Source: Patescibacteria group bacterium (GTDB lineage Bacteria; Patescibacteriota; Patescibacteriia; Patescibacteriales; UBA12075). From it: 36,575 bases of DNA. The notes beneath the pieces are model-generated. The model was not told where the DNA came from, did no database searches, and saw nothing but the letters and a program-made list of their open reading frames with translations. Location: contig JAYEHJ010000087.1 in assembly GCA_034659435.1 (NCBI GenBank), positions 1 to 36,575 on the forward strand, in the 5' to 3' direction. This document shows, piece by piece, positions 1 to 30,325 of the stretch; position 1 is the stretch's first letter; each line of letters starts with the position of its first letter. Made by a program: the position numbers and the translations under genes.

Positions 1-68
1 CGTAAATTATAAATTTTTTGTCAGCCTGGGTTTTAAAACCCAGGCTGACAAAAAATTTATAATTTACG
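1..68. terminator. perfect 68-nt palindrome; bidirectional intrinsic terminator after pilC
   Basis: Positions 1-34 are the exact reverse complement of 35-68. The GC core gtcagcctggg/cccaggctgac is flanked by T and A runs. It lies 8 nt beyond the pilC stop and may extend past the window edge. Confidence 0.6.
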
Positions 69-3018: not shown

Positions 3019-3035
3019 GCATATTTTAAAAGAAT

Positions 3036-3119
3036 ATTACAAATTACAAATAGCTGCAAATAACACAAATATTATATAATAAATTTTTTTATTATTTGTA
3101 GCTATTTGTAATTTGTAAT
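3036..3119. repeat. 28-nt-arm AT-rich inverted repeat upstream of pilB
   Basis: attacaaattacaaatagctgcaaataa (3036-63) versus ttatttgtagctatttgtaatttgtaat (3092-3119): one mismatch. Confidence 0.75.
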
Positions 3120-3143
3120 CTTAATATTTCTTTAATTTTTATA

Positions 3144-3351: not shown

Positions 3352-3702
3352 ATGGCTAATTTACAAGAAATTTTTAATCGCTTGCAAAAAACAAAAAAAG
3401 AACAGCGTGAAATCAAAGCAATGTACCGCGATGCTTTAAAAAATTCAAGCGGACACAAGGCGGTTTTGGATGAAGTCGTGAAGTTAAAAGAAAAGAAGAA
3501 AATAATTGAAGATGGGATTCAGGATGATTTTCGGGTGGAGTTTGACAAGCTGGAAGTTTTAAAAGCTGACATTGAAAATGACTCCATGCTTTTAAGCGAC
3601 GCGGCTTTATCGGAATACTTAAAAGGCAAGGGTGTGGAAATAATTGATGAGTATGAAAATAAGTATGAGCCGATTTTTAAAGTGCAGTTTAAAAAAATAT
3701 AA
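3352..3702 (+). CDS. hypothetical charged, helical (coiled-coil-like) protein, 116 aa
   Basis: ATG ORF followed by an intrinsic terminator at 3708-3746. No recognisable motif. Confidence 0.5.
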   Translation: MANLQEIFNRLQKTKKEQREIKAMYRDALKNSSGHKAVLDEVVKLKEKKKIIEDGIQDDFRVEFDKLEVLKADIENDSMLLSDAALSEYLKGKGVEIIDEYENKYEPIFKVQFKKI

Positions 3703-3707
3703 ACAAT

Positions 3708-3746
3708 AAAGACTTGATGCAGTTTTTACAATCAGGTCTTTTTTTG
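3708..3746 (+). terminator. intrinsic terminator of the 116-aa ORF
   Basis: aaagacttgat / atcaggtcttt stem (one G-U pair) followed by a run of T. Confidence 0.6.
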
Positions 3747-4874: not shown

Positions 4875-6536
4875 ATGGTAAACCCAAATTTAAGCAGAAT
4901 ATCTGAAAAAAAATTAACGCCTACGATTAACGCTAAGCGTCTTTTTCAGATTATATATCGCGAACAATCAAAAGCGGAAGCAAAAGAAGACGAAGTTCCA
5001 AAAATAAATGTTTCGGAATTAATCTCCAAGATGTCTTTTTATTATGAAAAAATTAGGAACACGGTTGATTATAAAGAAGAACACCTTCTTAGAAAAAATG
5101 CGATTGAAAGAATTATTAAAAGAAAAGTCGTAATTGAAGGCACGATATCGGTAAAAGGTGTAAATAGCGTTGAAATAGCAAGACATCTGTTAACAGAATT
5201 AATCAGAGCGGCGTATTTGCCCAATAATTCAATTCCGGAAACTAAAATTGGCGAGGTAGCGAAAACTATTAAAAAATATTTAGATTTAAAAAGAGCGATT
5301 GCAAAAGTAAAAGGCTGGGGATTATCTGAAAAAAATGATTTGAATAATTGGATAATAGCTTTAGCGGCAAGCGATATTGAAGAGCGCTTAGGCTTAAGCA
5401 AAATTAACAGAACCGTGGTTGATTATATAAATAAAATTTTGCTTAAAAATATTGAATTGCCTGGTGATTCCGAATATGAGACAGATAAAGAAATTCAAAT
5501 ATTTTTAGGGATACATAGGTGTTACTTAAAATTTGACCGCGATATGATGAGCTTTATACTTTTTAAATATTATGTAGCCGATTGGAAAAATCCGAATGCG
5601 GAAAAAATTGAAGAGGTTGCCGCAAAAATAGTTTTTTTGCGAAAAGCGATTAACAAACAGCTTGAACACCCGATGGTTAAACAGCTTAATCGGATTATTA
5701 GCCGTTATACTGTTTTTTTTGCGATTTTAACCGACGTAATTAAAGAAAATCCAGTAGCGGTTTATGAAAGTATCAAGAAGGATCCAAAGGTTTTTCCGCG
5801 TGAAATAAAAAAAGCCTGCGGCAAAAAATACAAAGAGTCTTCCAAAAAATTGTGGCGAGCCGCTGTCAGAAGCATAATTTATATTTTTATTACAAAATCG
5901 GTTTTTGCCGTATTATTAGAGCTTCCGGCGACAAAATGGTTTGGCGAGGAGCTTAATGTTATTTCGTTGATTATTAATATTAGTTTTCCGGCAGTTCTTT
6001 TGTTTTTTATTGTTTTATTCACTAAAATGCCGTCTGAAGATAATAGTAATAAGATTAAAGAAGGAATTGAAGAAGTCGTTTTTGAAGAGCATGAACGCAA
6101 AGAGCCGTTTCGCTTGCGCAAGCCGGCGCGCCGCAGCAAAAGCATGGGGCTTATTTTCGGAATTTTATATTTCATAACTTTCTTTTTTTCATTTGGAGCT
6201 GTTATTTGGGCATTAAATAAAATTAATTTTACATGGGTAAGCATTGTAATTTTTTTATTTTTCTTAACGTTTGTCAGTTTTTTTAGCATTCGTATCCGCA
6301 AGAACGCCCGAGATATGATTATTATTCCGCCGCGGGAAAATATTTTAAGTTTTATCAGCGACTTTTTTTATATTCCGATTGTTGCCGTCGGCAAGTGGAT
6401 GAGCGAAAAATTTTCTCAAGTAAATGTTTTTGTGTTTATCCTTGATTTTATAATAGAAGCTCCGTTTAAAATTTTTGTTGAAATCGCTGAAGAGTGGACA
6501 AGGTATGTGCGTGAAAGGAAGGAGGATATTGTGTAA
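4875..6536 (+). CDS. hypothetical membrane protein: about 330-aa soluble helical N-domain plus about 4 C-terminal TM helices
   Basis: 553-aa uninterrupted ORF. TM segments from about residue 330. No family recognised by eye. Confidence 0.7.
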   Translation: MVNPNLSRISEKKLTPTINAKRLFQIIYREQSKAEAKEDEVPKINVSELISKMSFYYEKIRNTVDYKEEHLLRKNAIERIIKRKVVIEGTISVKGVNSVEIARHLLTELIRAAYLPNNSIPETKIGEVAKTIKKYLDLKRAIAKVKGWGLSEKNDLNNWIIALAASDIEERLGLSKINRTVVDYINKILLKNIELPGDSEYETDKEIQIFLGIHRCYLKFDRDMMSFILFKYYVADWKNPNAEKIEEVAAKIVFLRKAINKQLEHPMVKQLNRIISRYTVFFAILTDVIKENPVAVYESIKKDPKVFPREIKKACGKKYKESSKKLWRAAVRSIIYIFITKSVFAVLLELPATKWFGEELNVISLIINISFPAVLLFFIVLFTKMPSEDNSNKIKEGIEEVVFEEHERKEPFRLRKPARRSKSMGLIFGILYFITFFFSFGAVIWALNKINFTWVSIVIFLFFLTFVSFFSIRIRKNARDMIIIPPRENILSFISDFFYIPIVAVGKWMSEKFSQVNVFVFILDFIIEAPFKIFVEIAEEWTRYVRERKEDIV

Positions 6537-6612
6537 TTTATGATTTATGATTTTGAATTTATGATTTTAATGTATTATAAATTTTTTAAATCTGAAATCA
6601 TAAATCATAAAT
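6536..6612 (+). terminator. AT-rich 18-bp hairpin (atttatgatttatgattt / aaatcataaatcataaat)
   Basis: Perfect 18-bp complementarity between 6536-6553 and 6595-6612, starting at the last base of the 553-aa ORF stop codon (6534-6536). Terminator function is inferred. Confidence 0.4.
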
Positions 6613-6625
6613 CTAAAATTATAAC

Positions 6626-7384
6626 ATGCTATATATAGTTGCCACGCCAATCGGTAATCTGGAAGATATATCACTTCGCGCGTTAAGAATTCTCGGCGAA
6701 GTTGATTTTGTTTTATGCGAAGATACGCGGGTGACCAAAAAGCTGTTAGAGTATTATAAAGTTAAAACCAAAACAATTTCTTATCATCAGCATTCGGGTA
6801 TTAAAAAACAGGATTATCTTTTGGGGTTATTGGAAGCAGGTAAAGATTTGGCGCTGGTGTCTGATGCCGGTACGCCTGGTATATCAGATCCCGGCGGCAA
6901 ACTGGTATCTGCTGTGATTGAAAAATTTGGTGAATCAATTAAAATTGAATCTGTTCCTGGTCCTTCCGCGGTTACAGCCGCGTTATCAATATCAGGAATA
7001 GCAACTGATAAATTCATATTTTTAGGATTTCCTCCGCATAAGAAGGGACGACAGAAATTTTTGCAAAAAATAGTTGACAGTATTTTTCCGGTTGTAATTT
7101 ATGAGTCAAAACATCGGATACTTAAATTTTTGGAAGAGTTAAAAAAGATAAATCAGAATATTGTTAAGCATAATCAAGAAATTGATGAGCAAAAAAGCAA
7201 GGACATAATCAGACCTAAAAATTTACCTAGAAAAATAAATTTAATTACATCAGTCGTCGTTTGCCGTGAGTTGTCAAAAATGCACGAAACGGTTTATCGC
7301 GGAGAGCTTTCTGATGTTATTGATAAAATTAAAAATAGCCATAATGATCAAAGAGGGGAGTTTGTGGTTATAGTTGGGAGATAA
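6626..7384 (+). CDS. rsmI: 16S rRNA (cytidine1402-2'-O)-methyltransferase
   Basis: N-terminus LYIVATPIGNLEDISLRALRIL...CEDTR and SDAGTPGISDPG are the tetrapyrrole-methylase-fold RsmI signatures. Confidence 0.9.
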   Translation: MLYIVATPIGNLEDISLRALRILGEVDFVLCEDTRVTKKLLEYYKVKTKTISYHQHSGIKKQDYLLGLLEAGKDLALVSDAGTPGISDPGGKLVSAVIEKFGESIKIESVPGPSAVTAALSISGIATDKFIFLGFPPHKKGRQKFLQKIVDSIFPVVIYESKHRILKFLEELKKINQNIVKHNQEIDEQKSKDIIRPKNLPRKINLITSVVVCRELSKMHETVYRGELSDVIDKIKNSHNDQRGEFVVIVGR

Positions 7385-8920: not shown

Positions 8921-9170
8921 CTGTCATTCCCGACACACCTTAGCCCCCGCAGGGAATTATTATTAAATGATCGGGAATCTCTTTAAAAGAAAAAGATTTA
9001 AAATAATATTCAAAGATAAAAAAAGAATACATCTATTAAACAATTAAGATAAATACAATTTAAATTTTTATAAACGGATATTTCATAATTAATATTTAGA
9101 TGCTTTTTACGAGATCTCCGATCATTTAATATAACTTCCCTGCGGGGCAAGGAGTGTCGGAGATGACAGA
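8921..9170. repeat. family-A inverted doublet of about 60-nt GC-rich hairpin units (REPIN/MITE-like)
   Basis: The left unit tgtcattcccgacacacc...aaatgatcgggaatctc and the right unit gagatctccgatcattt...gtgtcggagatgaca are inverted copies (roughly 85-90 percent identical by eye) around an AT-rich centre of about 130 nt. Confidence 0.8.
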
Positions 9171-9214
9171 TGCGGTGCGTAAGGTTAGTTTATAATTCTT
9201 AACTAAAAAAACAA

Positions 9215-13160: not shown

Positions 13161-13224
13161 AATTATTCTATGCGCGGGCGATTATTAGCTTAATCTCCTG
13201 CAGATAAAATAATTTTTGAATAAT

Positions 13225-13290
13225 GAATTGAGAATAAAGAATTAAGAAGCTGTTACGAAATCTTGATTCTTTATTCTTAATTCTTGATTC
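13225..13290 (+). repeat. related imperfect hairpin of about 24 bp at the atpE-atpF junction
   Basis: gaattgagaataaagaattaagaa / ttctttattcttaattcttgattc use the same aagaat/attctt heptamer vocabulary as 14204-14255. Confidence 0.6.
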
Positions 13291-13296
13291 TTTTTT

Positions 13297-13788
13297 ATGG
13301 AAAATTTAATTGAAACATTTCATATTGATATAAAATTGCTAATAGCGCAAGTGATTAATTTTGCTATTGTTTTTAGTGTTTTGTATTTTTTCGCGCTGAA
13401 GCCGTTGCTTAAAGTTATGTGTGATAGAACCAAAAAAATTGAAAAAAGCATTGATGACGCGCAAAAAATAGAAGAAAAATTAAGCAAGACAGACGAAGAA
13501 TACAATAAGGCAATCAGCAATGCGAAAAAAAAAGCAAATATTATTATGGAAAAGGCAAATGTTATGGCAGAAAAAAAAAGGCAGGATTTAATAAAAAAAG
13601 CAAAAGACGAAATAGGACAGATTATTAATAAAGAAAAAGAGCAAATGCAGATTGAAAAAGCTAGAACGTTAAAAGAAATAAAAAAAGAAACAGCAGATTT
13701 AGTTGTTGCTTCTTTGGAAAAGATTTTGGAAAAAAAAATGGATAGCAAGAAAGACGGAGAATTAATTAAGAAGATGGTTAAAAAATAG
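13297..13788 (+). CDS. atpF: F0F1 ATP synthase subunit b
   Basis: One N-terminal TM helix followed by a long charged helix. Operon position. Confidence 0.85.
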   Translation: MENLIETFHIDIKLLIAQVINFAIVFSVLYFFALKPLLKVMCDRTKKIEKSIDDAQKIEEKLSKTDEEYNKAISNAKKKANIIMEKANVMAEKKRQDLIKKAKDEIGQIINKEKEQMQIEKARTLKEIKKETADLVVASLEKILEKKMDSKKDGELIKKMVKK

Positions 13789-13801: not shown

Positions 13802-14203
13802 ATGAAGATTACCGCAAAACAATACGCTGAAAGTTTATACGAAGCCGTTCAAAATAGGAATGACAGCCAGATTAAAGTTGTAATAAATAATTTTTTTAGT
13901 ATTTTAGTTCAAAATAATGATATTGCGAAAGCCGAAGATGTTGTTGTTGAATTTGAAAAAATATGGAATATAGAGCAGGGAATTATTAAAGCTGAAGCTA
14001 TGAGTGCGCGCGAGCTTGATAAAAACACTGTTAAATTATTAAATAGTCATATTGTTGAATTGTCTAGCGCTAAAAAAGTTATTTTAGATCAAAAAATAAA
14101 TAAAAATATTTTAGGAGGAACGGTCATTAAATATGAAGATAAAATTTTAGATGGGAGTTTGAGGATGAGGTTAAGTGAGTTAAAAAGCGAGATGGTAAAA
14201 TAA
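13802..14203 (+). CDS. atpH: F0F1 ATP synthase subunit delta (short, 133 aa)
   Basis: OSCP-like ends (YAESLYEA at the N-terminus, GGTVIKYEDKILDGSLRMRL at the C-terminus). Operon position. About 45 aa shorter than typical delta. Confidence 0.8.
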   Translation: MKITAKQYAESLYEAVQNRNDSQIKVVINNFFSILVQNNDIAKAEDVVVEFEKIWNIEQGIIKAEAMSARELDKNTVKLLNSHIVELSSAKKVILDQKINKNILGGTVIKYEDKILDGSLRMRLSELKSEMVK

Positions 14204-14255
14204 GAATTAAGAATAAAGAATTAAGAATAAAATCTTAATTCTTTATTCTTAATTC
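14204..14255 (+). repeat. perfect 23-bp AT-rich hairpin at the atpH-atpA junction
   Basis: gaattaagaataaagaattaaga (14204-26) / tcttaattctttattcttaattc (14233-55), with loop ataaaa. Confidence 0.8.
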
Positions 14256-14271
14256 GTAATTCAATATTATT

Positions 14272-15852
14272 ATGTCAAATACTAAAGATTTTATTGTGGA
14301 ACAATTAAAACAGCAGATTGCCGGTTTTAAGCATGAAGTTAAAGAGCAAACAGTCGGCAAGGTTATTAAAATAGGAGACGGAATTGCTCAAATTTCCGGG
14401 CTTTCCGACGTTATGATGTCAGAAATGCTTAAATTTTCAAGCAATAAAGAATCTGAAATCCGCCAGCCCGAGGCTGGTCCGCCTCGGGCGGAAAATCCGA
14501 AATCCGAAATCCGACACGGTGTCGCCTTGAATCTGGAAGAGGATAGCGTTGGCGCTATTATTTTGGGCGACTGTTCAAGCATTAAAGAGGGTGATGAAGT
14601 TAAATCGTTAAAAAGGATCTTGGAAGTCCCAGTTGGCAATAGCATGATTGGCAGAGTTGTTAATCCATTAGGCAAGGCCTTGGACGGAAAAGGCGAGATA
14701 ATCGCTGATAAATTTTATCCGATAGAAAAAATAGCTCCGGGCGTAATCGCCCGCGAATCAGTAAGCGAGCCGGTGCAGACAGGCATAAAAGCCATTGACG
14801 CTATGATTCCGATTGGAAGGGGGCAAAGAGAGTTAATTATCGGCGATAGGCAAATTGGCAAAACCGCTATTGCTATTGACGCGATTATTAATCAAAAAGG
14901 ACAGAATATGAAATGTATTTACGTGGCAATCGGACAGAAAGAATCAAAAATAGCAAATATTGCCGCTAAACTGGAAGAACATGGAGCAATGGAATATACG
15001 ACAATTGTTTTGGCAGGAGCTTCTGACCCGGCATCACTTGCGTATATAGCTCCTTATGCCGGATGCGCTATGGCTGAATATTTTTTAGACAAAGGCGAGG
15101 ATGTTTTGATCGTTTATGACGATTTAAGCAAACATGCCGTTGCCTATCGTGAAATTTCATTATTATTAAAAAGACCGCCGAGTCGTGAAGCTTATCCCGG
15201 AGATGTTTTTTATCTTCATTCAAGGCTATTGGAAAGATCTTGCAATTTAAATAAAGAACATGGCAGCGGATCAATAACGGCTTTGCCGATTATTGAAACT
15301 CAGGCAGGGGATGTGTCCGCGTATATTCCGACAAATGTTATTTCAATTACCGACGGACAAATTTATTTGGAGCCTGATTTGTTTTATCAAGGCAACAGAC
15401 CCGCTGTGAACGCGGGCTTATCGGTCTCACGCGTTGGTTCAGCCGCGCAGATTAAAGCCATGAAAAAAGTTGCCGGCAAGATGAGGCTGGATGCGGCACA
15501 ATATCGTGAGCTTGCGGCATTCGCGCAATTCGGATCAGATTTGGACGAGGAAACAAAAAACAAACTTGAGAGAGGCAAAAGGCTTGTGGAAATATTCAAA
15601 CAAGATCAATATAAAACAGTTTCAGCCGCAAATCAGGTGCTAATATTTTTCGCGATAACTTCCGGATTATTAGATAATATTTCAGTTAAAAAAATTAATA
15701 ATTTTGAAGAAGGATTAAATAAATATGCTAAAAATAACGGGCAAGATATTTTGCAAGAAATTGCGGATAGAGGGGAGTTGAGTGAAAAATTGGAAGAGAT
15801 GATGAAAAAATTGGTTGAAGATTATAAGAGCACAATTGATTTGGAAAAATAA
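14272..15852 (+). CDS. atpA: F0F1 ATP synthase subunit alpha, carrying an in-frame insertion of about 22 aa
   Basis: Walker [18 protein letters not shown] and other alpha signatures. The extra segment [22 protein letters not shown] lies in the N-terminal beta-barrel. Confidence 0.95.
14449..14514 (+). repeat. in-frame GC-rich palindromic element within atpA
   Basis: 9-bp stem gcccgaggc (14466-74) / gcctcgggc (14481-89). Flanking near-identical tctgaaatccgcc / tccgaaatccgac. Three tandem aaatccg heptamers at 14493-14513. Confidence 0.7.
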
Positions 15853-16991: not shown

Positions 16992-17170
16992 TGTCATTTC
17001 GACCGGAGCGTCAGCGGAGTGGAAAAATCTTTAATATGTTTAAACCTTTTCCAAATATTTTTTGTTTCAATCTTTTGGTGTAATTCACGTATTATAGATT
17101 TATCCGCTCCGTTCTACCCCAAGGGCACTTCCGTTGGGCGCGCTGTCGCTCCACTCTGGTCGAAATGACA
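16992..17170. repeat. family-B inverted doublet (tgtcatttcgacc ... ggtcgaaatgaca) in the atpG-atpD gap
   Basis: The 13-nt termini are perfectly complementary. The internal ggagcg-cagcg-gag-gga-aaatct blocks are shared in inverse orientation. The right unit carries an extra GC-rich block of about 30 nt. Confidence 0.75.
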
Positions 17171-17202
17171 AAAATAAGGGGTTTGTTTTGGAAAGTGAGC
17201 TG

Positions 17203-20442: not shown

Positions 20443-20670
20443 TCTTCTACGAATTACGAATTTTACGAATACACAAATACTCTATAAACGTTTAAATATA
20501 ATTTTCATATATTTACGGCAACACAAAGCATATTTAAACATGTAATATGAGTTATCAATAAAATATCATATTTTATTGCGTAATGCAAGAATATTTATTA
20601 TAATTAAAATAGCTCTTTAAATGATTTTGTGTGTAATAAATATTATATTACGATTTTCGCCTCTTTTTTT

Positions 20671-20880
20671 TGTCATCTCCGACACACATTGCCCCGCAGG
20701 GAAATTATATTAAATGATCGGAGATCTCGTAAAAATCAACGAACATAAAAAATAAAAAAATATTTTAAAAAAATATTATATTAACAACCGTTATTTTAAA
20801 AAATAATTTAGATGCTTTTAAAGAGATTCCCGATCATTTAATATAATTTCCCTGCGGGGCAATGTGTGTCGGGAATGACA
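20671..20880. repeat. family-A inverted doublet, second copy
   Basis: tgtcatctccgacacacattgccccgcaggg...gatcggagatctc and agagattcccgatcattt...ccctgcggggcaatgtgtgtcgggaatgaca. The right-internal segment tttagatgctttt is shared with the 9095 copy. Confidence 0.8.
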
Positions 20881-20950
20881 AGGATGGTGCTTGTTAAAAT
20901 AATAAAAATATAATATTTATTACCCACAGAATTATTGAGCCATTAAAATT

Positions 20951-30127: not shown

Positions 30128-30184
30128 TTTGATTTTGTTTAGCAAATTACATCTAAATTTATTGTTTTGAATTTATTTCTTTTT

Positions 30185-30301
30185 AAGAGATTCCCGATCA
30201 TTTAATATAATTTCCCTGCGGGGCTATTGTGTGTCGGGAATGACAGAGAGAATAAAGTGTGTCGGGAATGACAAAAAGAAGAAAGTGCGTCGGGAATGAC
30301 A
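30185..30301. repeat. family-A solo unit followed by iterated 17-nt termini
   Basis: aagagattcccgatcatttaatataatttccctgcgggg... then gtgtgtcgggaatgaca at 30229 and 30257 and gtgcgtcgggaatgaca at 30285 (exact 28-nt period). Confidence 0.8.
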
Positions 30302-30325
30302 AAAAAAATAAAAATAAAAATCCCA

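Follow-up and report, generated by a model that had tools for sequence, protein, structure and literature searches.

A 30-nt twin-hairpin insert in the ATP synthase gene atpA of a Patescibacteria group bacterium and its dispersed relatives

The atpA gene, its heptamer tract and the insert

The DNA analysed here, referred to as the window, is a stretch of 36,575 nt from a Patescibacteria group bacterium (assembly GCA_034659435.1, contig JAYEHJ010000087.1, positions 1 to 36,575). The window is AT-rich and holds a complete F-type ATP synthase operon, and our interest centred on atpA, the gene of the F1 alpha subunit, in which an earlier note made from the sequence alone had described a 66-nt GC-rich palindromic element inserted in frame. 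The GC-rich palindromic insert is real, but it is not 66 nt long, since alignment with the related contig L004 leaves a gap of 30 nt at 14463-14492. The following features of the window are concerned.

14272-15852, + strand: atpA coding sequence (F1 alpha subunit, 526 aa), the host gene, from the list of open reading frames (ORFs)
14437-14523, + strand: codons S56-V84, which form the enlarged turn joining two beta-strands in the N-terminal domain, from alignments and an AlphaFold2 (AF2) model
14446-14462, + strand: left side of the host tract, made up of a degenerate unit (aaagaatctg) and one AAATCCG (14456-14462), from alignment with L004, L006 and L007
14463-14492, + strand: the inserted 30-nt twin-hairpin element, CCAGCCCGAGGCTGGTCCGCCTCGGGCGGA, encoding (R) plus 10 residues, from the gap versus L004
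14493-14513, + strand: right side of the host tract with three perfect AAATCCG units (21 nt), translated here as NPKSEIR; relatives have 2-5 units

A search with the encoded protein returned 8000 AtpA homologues at E<=1e-30, with PF02874, PF00006 and PF00306. The window AtpA holds a 29-residue segment between SEMLKF and ALNLEE, where the canonical turn of solved alpha subunits (T. maritima 2r9v and Bacillus PS3 4xd7/6n2y) has 3-4 residues. This bears out the excess of about 22 residues that had been noted at the turn, and the sequence likewise confirms that the insert has a length divisible by three and contains no stop codon. Among the 120 closest AtpA proteins (75-88% identity, with Parcubacteria or Patescibacteria as source labels) the aligned turn ranges from 4 residues (TEKG) to about 27, and its long versions resemble translated short tandem repeats. 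The length of this beta-turn is hypervariable among Parcubacteria, and the turn is a permissive site at which short repetitive DNA has been acquired repeatedly in that group. An AF2 model of AtpA, poor overall (mean pLDDT 62.9), leaves residues 60-78 unstructured at pLDDT <50 between strands 51-56 and 81-88; this low-confidence stretch agrees with a tolerated loop.

In the clade of the window the turn is occupied by an (AAATCCG)n tract. The three perfect aaatccg heptamers reported earlier lie at 14493-14513 and are joined by a fourth at 14456-14462, and the left part of the tract lines up base by base with the uninterrupted (AAATCCG)n of L004, L006 and L007. The heptamer units at the turn number two in L007, about five in L004 and five in L006, where they follow another repeat. 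Three units amount to 21 nt and encode KSEIRNP, and three-unit changes preserve the frame. Other lineages carry different repeat units at the turn, such as (ACACGGAT)n in L129. Tandem 7-8-nt units also form the arms of intergenic hairpins in the window (13216-13298, 14198-14270, 6534-6634, 3033-3122 and 1224-1263, with AAGAATT/AAGAATA and AAATCAT as examples of the units); similar short units fill the atpA loop in the clade and are preferred landing sites of the element described below.

Between the window and L004 the atpA alignment is broken only by a single clean gap of 30 nt, every other base having its counterpart, and in L006, L007 and L008 the tract is present and the insert absent. The insert, with its halves CCAGCCCGAGGCTGG and TCCGCCTCGGGCGGA, is placed between two heptamers. 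Because about five heptamer units are found in both the window and L004, no target duplication accompanied the insertion; a 7-nt duplication was rejected on this equal count and on the exact match of the empty tRNA sites considered below. The SEIR...SEIR direct repeats that had been taken to bound the element are present, yet the L004 alignment identifies them as pre-existing host tract, which also occurs in relatives without the insert, and not as element ends or a target duplication. These comparisons show that one 30-nt non-autonomous element was inserted at AAATCCG^AAATCCG (the caret marks the junction) in the lineage of the window, without target-site duplication. The decapeptide that it encodes in the window is absent from all 120 closest AtpA proteins.

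The base composition agrees with the shorter boundaries. Of the 66 nt that had been called GC-rich within an AT-rich gene, only the 30 nt at 14463-14492 are sharply so (24/30 G+C); the 100-nt GC profile peaks at 0.57 over the insert and reaches 0.58 elsewhere in atpA. When folding energies were compared with those of shuffled sequences, the 66-nt segment gave z = -1.66 and the 30-mer z = -3.5.

A different account would make the 29-residue loop an ancestral, protein-level adaptation of the crown, for instance to a truncated delta subunit, with the palindrome incidental. The delta subunit is indeed unusually short, as had been noticed, and long loops occur at this turn in many Parcubacteria.

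13802-14203, + strand: atpH (delta/OSCP), 133 aa, from its Pfam OSCP match; context only, outside the element

The delta protein matches only positions 58-172 of the 172-position OSCP profile; the N-terminal part that normally binds alpha is either lacking or cannot be recognised. Against an ancestral loop, however, neither the length nor the sequence of the loop is conserved, the identical 30-mer is present in dozens of unrelated genes, and the tract lacks the 30 nt in relatives whose AtpA is 84-88% identical. A delta of 133 aa is likewise found in L004, which lacks the insert, so the short delta and the insert are not linked; this length is also shared by L127-L128. The alignment of filled and empty atpA sites largely refutes an ancestral loop, which we consider scarcely credible.

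An assembly or binning artefact at the position of the insert was also weighed. The exact AtpA protein has no record elsewhere, the atpA-specific allele (the element inside the AAATCCG tract) gave 0 hits in JGI metagenomes, and the window begins with a perfect 68-nt palindrome. Nevertheless, both flanks of the insert continue atpA in register and in frame with no stop, and the element occurs likewise in metagenome-assembled genomes (MAGs) and a single-cell genome from many independent studies, so that the prospect of an artefact appears negligible. The terminal palindrome itself (window 1-68, 34+34 nt, CGTAAATTATAAATTTTTTGTCAGCCTGGGTTTT followed by its reverse complement) may be an artefact of fold-back at the end of the contig or else a bidirectional terminator.

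Anatomy and fold of the element

The 30 nt divide into two hairpins, whose paired positions are numbered from the first base of the element.

14463-14477, + strand: hairpin A, CCAGCC-CGA-GGCTGG, 6-bp stem and 3-nt loop, with covariation at 1/15, 3/13, 4/12 and 6/10
14478-14492, + strand: hairpin B, TCCGCC-TCG-GGCGGA, 6-bp stem and 3-nt loop, with covariation at 17/29 and 18/28

The copies described in the next section have the consensus CCAGCC-CRA-GGCTGG followed by TCCGCC-TYG-GGCGGA. CAGCC is preceded by C in 124/127 copies and GGCGG is followed by A in 125/127, and this conservation marks the element as a 30-nt unit of two 15-nt hairpins. Diverged copies, collected at the same loci with <=6 mismatches, display paired changes in the stems: C1/G15 becomes T/A, A3/T13 becomes C/G or G/C, and C18/G28 becomes G/C or A/T. 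Fold tests on 59 distinct variants found 97.9% of cells paired under the twin-hairpin model, with 32 double-change cells versus 5.7 in shuffles and none of 500 shuffles as high. The single long hairpin reached 73.3% paired cells versus 72.8% when shuffled, and 17 double-change cells versus 20.3; performing no better than shuffled sequence, it was rejected as the conserved fold. Two adjacent 15-nt hairpins are the structure conserved across the family. The 9-bp stem gcccgaggc/gcctcgggc described earlier does belong to the minimum-energy fold of the window copy, but the family lends it no support. In the window copy the twin and the single long folds have similar predicted energies, and a rare loop pair, G8 with C23 (4/127), makes the long stem perfect.

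The dispersed family, its target sites and its coding copies

To locate further copies, a collection of species-representative genomes was scanned with CAGCCNNNGGCTGGTCCGCCTNGGGCGG (stems fixed, loops free). The 30-mer was found in at least 118 contigs of other genomes, at no fewer than 125 sites with unrelated flanks. Within the window it occurs once, the 29-mer core being unique there with 0 chance matches expected. The copy statistics given below (127 copies, 66 of them coding) rest on the matches listed and are lower bounds. Among those matches the contig labels are mostly Patescibacteria, covering >15 named lineages of the candidate phyla radiation (CPR) and including one single-cell genome; they comprise Parcubacteria/Paceibacterota, Moran-, Saccharibacteria, Staskawicz-, Nomura-, Wolfe-, Giovannoni-, Falkow-, Portnoy-, Nealson-, Taylor-, Buchanan-, Magasanik-, Adler-, Doudna- and Berkelbacteria. 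The labels Gammaproteobacteria, Pseudomonadales, Bdellovibrionales and Methylomirabilis are attached to others (L020, L022, L026, L028, L034, L038, L047, L057, L065, L067, L077 and L108). Around the element, L026 ("Bdellovibrionales") is 98% identical to L118 ("Moraniibacteriota"), which makes at least one non-CPR label doubtful.

Several arrangements of copies were encountered. L004 has a near-copy with different loop bases upstream of tRNA genes. Tandem pairs in L057 (6043-6108) and L071 (2266-2330) are spaced by one 7-8-nt host repeat unit, giving a 37-38-nt period and two different frames translated in one ORF. L004 additionally carries another twin GC hairpin of 39 nt (CCACGGCATCCGCCGTGG plus CGCCCCGATGGATATCGGGGCG) at 3421-3461 and 3697-3745, in the T-loop of tRNA-like sequences that ARAGORN does not call.

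Searches of other collections gave little. IMG/VR viral contigs yielded 0 hits to the element, leaving a phage vector without evidence, and PLSDB plasmids yielded nothing meaningful. Rfam returned no hit at gathering score over the window and chance-level matches only around the element (E >= 0.78). A protein search with concatenated decapeptides, a motif too short for this purpose, produced 754 word-sharing candidates with none at E<=10. The impression that such an element had not been described before agrees with the absence of an Rfam family and of any paper on the DNA motif, the peptide motif or a CPR element of this kind in the literature searched, which was the part open without subscription.

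The dispersed copies bear directly on whether the insert could have arisen locally, by slippage or fold-back synthesis in the heptamer tract or by copying of a nearby terminator hairpin. The sister lineage L001 (AtpA 88% identical) offers an instance that looks like microhomology-templated copying: its atpA carries a different 27-nt GC palindrome in frame at the same heptamer junction, and this palindrome matches the groEL terminator of L001 including the left flank AAAAAATCCG. A local origin of the window insert is contradicted by the same 30-mer in at least 118 other contigs with unrelated flanks and by the lack of anything similar elsewhere in the window. De novo local origin is refuted by the dispersed copies, and the broader proposal is quite unlikely; templated copying from another copy in the same genome is a possible mechanism of spread. 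The L001 palindrome, CCCCGCCNCTCGCGAGNGGCGGGG, is 24-27 nt long at its three sites in L001 (10186-10212, 17547-17573 and 20494-20518) and doubles as the groEL terminator hairpin of that genome. Palindromes of the L001 type are found in at least 120 metagenome contigs (L130-L249, GC 0.29-0.72), mostly at the centre of larger inverted repeats and also at T-loop-like sites.

The landing sites of the 30-mer were established from ten independent filled/empty pairs, consisting of atpA and of tRNA fragments, each fragment being set against the intact tRNA that lies 70-95 nt from it. Every pair demonstrates an exact 30-nt insertion with no duplication. Aligned flanks give the logo T,T,S ^ A,A,A,T,Y,Y, and the preferred target TTS^AAAT(CC) matches both the T-loop DNA of tRNAs (GGTTC^AAATCC) and the junctions between AAAxxxx heptamers. 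Of the empty sites, 8/126 fall within period-7 repeats, versus 9/5078 random positions (odds ratio 38, p = 2e-9, junction-centred test), and at these sites the junction always falls at a unit boundary; long periodic flanks, sought with a stricter test, gave a negative result (2/125). In L080 the element likewise sits at AAATCCG^AAATCCG, within a GT4 glycosyltransferase gene. The enrichment at unit boundaries of period-7 repeats makes the atpA tract a typical landing site.

About 20 copies are located in short partial duplicates of a neighbouring tRNA, with 3'-end fragments downstream of the gene and 5'-end fragments upstream of it. These duplicates may be old attachment-site remnants that tolerate insertion, or they may be products of the insertion itself. 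Within the fragments the element occupies the T-loop or D-loop, 12-85 nt from the real gene (L018, L022, L029, L072, L084, L089, L097, L099, L103 and L104, element +/- 100 nt).

After in-silico excision, 66/127 copies (52%) were found in frames open for >=40 codons on both sides, and all 66 keep the ORF open with the element present. Their hosts are housekeeping genes (98 Pfam families among 61 ORFs), including DnaJ (10 copies, in the G/F linker), GT4 glycosyltransferases, TsaD, TGT, class I aminoacyl-tRNA synthetases (aaRS), MiaA, the CCA-adding enzyme, UvrC, trigger factor, SecA and others. Coding copies are biased in orientation by 52:14 (p = 3e-6), the 52 running opposite to the window copy, whereas the orientation of non-coding copies is unbiased with respect to the genes beside them. 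A single orientation and phase, translated as (F)SAQGGPASGW, accounts for 42/66 coding copies; the two Arg-rich frames are rare, and the window frame is a minor recurrent class of 5 copies. The phases were observed at 42/3/7 versus 24/8/20 expected from the availability of target hexamers in the same genes (p = 6e-6), and orientation also departs from target availability (p = 7e-8). No coding copy (0/42) has a loop variant that would introduce a stop into the main frame, against 7/61 non-coding copies (p = 0.04), and no otherwise intact tRNA is interrupted by the element.

The frame and orientation bias, the avoidance of stops and the lack of interrupted intact tRNAs suggest that the element stays in the RNA, that it is translated rather than spliced, and that the resulting peptide is under selection. 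A tiny intron-like insert, spliced from the transcripts to leave the AtpA protein unchanged, would recall the non-canonical tRNA introns of archaea in its loop positions within tRNA-like sequences, and 30 nt is frame-neutral either way. The frame and orientation bias nevertheless exceeds what target availability explains, stop-generating loop variants are missing from coding copies, only tRNA fragments beside the real gene are hit and never an intact tRNA, and there is no exon-pairing motif. Splicing is highly improbable on these grounds.

The window also contains MITE-like repeats with TGTCAT...ATGACA inverted ends (MITE, miniature inverted-repeat transposable element) at 8921-9171, 20670-20881, 30158-30312 and 16993-17172. 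The repeat at 30229-30312 is followed by three 28-nt tandem units, GTGTGTCGGGAATGACA..., and another of the repeats lies within an unusually long 664-nt atpG-atpD spacer.

Interpretation and comparison with known systems

Taken together, the results favour a reading in which the window insert is one copy of a Patescibacteria-wide family of 30-nt, two-hairpin, non-autonomous elements that is tolerated in the permissive turn of AtpA; we would give this a probability of roughly 0.78. With a length of 30 nt and usually no stop, the element could persist inside genes. It would be transcribed and translated, appearing in AtpA as a decapeptide, and selection would retain those copies whose frame yields a harmless Gly/Pro/Ser/Ala-rich decapeptide in a loop or linker. 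In AtpA the copy is most probably a passenger that a disordered loop tolerates and not an adaptation of the ATP synthase, and the atpA oddity is probably harmless to the enzyme. Mobilisation might occur in trans, perhaps by an enzyme that reads the folded hairpins or the near two-fold symmetry of element plus target. Among 82 neighbours of non-coding copies, which are unrelated housekeeping genes, no recurrent gene, transposase, integrase or RAYT/Y1 gene was found; the lack of a recurrent neighbour fits a non-autonomous element.

Several observations weigh against this reading of the insert as a tolerated mobile copy. No mobilising gene was recognised among those neighbours of non-coding copies, and the 36.6-kb window has a single copy of the element. 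Each MAG holds 1-5 exact copies among the matches listed, a low number for a selfish repeat. The presence/absence difference in atpA is the only event caught in close relatives, and the absence of the atpA-specific allele from JGI metagenomes counts here as well. Translation is argued from frame statistics. Finally, at orthologous sites in diverged species (the CCA-adding enzyme in L009/L012, trigger factor in L061/L091 and TGT in L010/L079) the stems are 24/24 identical and the flanks 59-67% identical, a stem identity that is inflated by exact-match ascertainment. Such invariant stems point to nucleotide-level selection, gene conversion or repeated insertion, and a purely neutral passenger may be an incomplete description.

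The same stems also speak for a functional cis-signal, a DNA or RNA site that some conserved CPR factor would bind, for instance in recombination, DNA uptake, nucleoid organisation or mRNA handling, and that selection would keep. Compensatory changes that preserve the hairpins even where the peptide alters, and a near-identical sequence from Saccharibacteria to Parcubacteria at low copy number, are consistent with it. On the other hand, the sites are dispersed and follow no rule of position with respect to genes, presence and absence differ among close relatives, the search by exact match that found the orthologous pairs was biased toward intact copies, and no U-tract follows the hairpins, so that the element is not a terminator. 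We also know of no factor that binds the 30-mer. A signalling role is unlikely on balance; it could add to mobility rather than replace it, in which case the presence of the element in atpA would be more than tolerated.

A bolder form of the mobile-element reading, which can be held only tentatively, is that the 30-mer is the smallest site-specific mobile DNA yet seen in bacteria, active across Patescibacteria, aimed at T-loop-like TTS^AAATCC and kept at the nucleotide level. If so, one would expect either a conserved enzyme dedicated to its mobilisation or some function of the hairpins in the cell, and the element would be writing a natural catalogue of insertion-tolerant sites in essential CPR proteins. 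Were the family confirmed, a phenomenon resembling the Rickettsia palindromic elements (RPE) would be placed in a part of the tree that is much larger and very different, with an element five times smaller. Even CPR bacteria, with their reduced genomes and episymbiotic life, would then carry a repeat, active now or until recently, that edits essential proteins such as AtpA, DnaJ, SecA, TsaD and aaRS. The exact 30-mer, the target motif and the filled/empty sites would then provide a handle on a hairpin-specific DNA enzyme, and the recurrent 10-residue insert (SAQGGPASGW and its frame variants) could distort CPR alignments, phylogenies and structure predictions.

Comparison with known systems helps to place the family. 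Membership among introns, whether group I/II or of the bulge-helix-bulge (BHB) type, was rejected from the sequence patterns, namely the frame and orientation bias, the avoidance of stops and the consistent absence from intact tRNAs. MITEs, which have terminal inverted repeats, target-site duplications and lengths of ~50-500 bp, were rejected on the lack of duplication in the ten filled/empty pairs and on the length of 30 nt. DNA uptake sequences (USS/DUS of Pasteurellaceae and Neisseria) are short conserved motifs that lie in genes in preferred frames, in lineages thought to depend on uptake; they arise by point mutation and recombination and number in the thousands, whereas the 30-mer is demonstrably a 30-nt insertion and low-copy. 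PATEs, which derive from IS200/IS605, move by single-strand 'peel and paste' with hairpin ends, without target duplication and with insertion directed by a short motif, and they are about 100 nt or longer with distinct left and right ends. The 30-mer resembles them in its hairpins, its specific short target motif and its lack of target duplication, but its non-coding copies have no orientation bias relative to neighbouring genes and no TnpA was found among the neighbours of those copies.

REP/BIME sequences and REPINs, mobilised by RAYT enzymes (IS200/IS605-like HUH transposases), are non-autonomous GC-rich imperfect palindromes of 20-40 nt with compensatory changes, sometimes paired, and the 30-mer is similar in its 30-nt length, 80% G+C and two hairpins. 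REPs are extragenic and usually number hundreds per genome, whereas the 30-mer is 52% intragenic with few copies per genome among the matches listed. The REP superfamilies carry a conserved GTAG or CGTC tetranucleotide tag at one end (PMC3733652); the 30-mer begins CCAG... and ends ...CGGA without either tag, and REP/RAYT membership was rejected on the absent tag and the broken extragenic rule.

The closest parallel in behaviour is the RPE, to which the earlier note had likened the insert. RPEs (Ogata et al. 2000, as summarised in PMC10969869) are short palindromic repeats of ~100-150 bp in Rickettsia that are found in frame in unrelated housekeeping ORFs, where they add a tolerated peptide, and also in non-coding DNA and near RNA genes. 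The likeness to a mobile element tolerated in a loop is upheld by the dispersed copies, by the atpA relatives without the insert and by the half of all copies that lie in genes: like RPEs, the 30-mer is in frame in unrelated genes whose ORFs are kept open (66/127 copies, 98 Pfam families). Assignment to the RPE family itself was rejected on length, which suffices by itself, and on the CPR hosts; the two families are not known to be related in sequence. Unlike RPEs, the 30-mer is only 30 nt long and adds 10 residues, has a two-hairpin architecture and a clear target motif, causes no target duplication and is spread over many CPR lineages. Its behaviour is RPE-like, but it is a separate and much smaller family.

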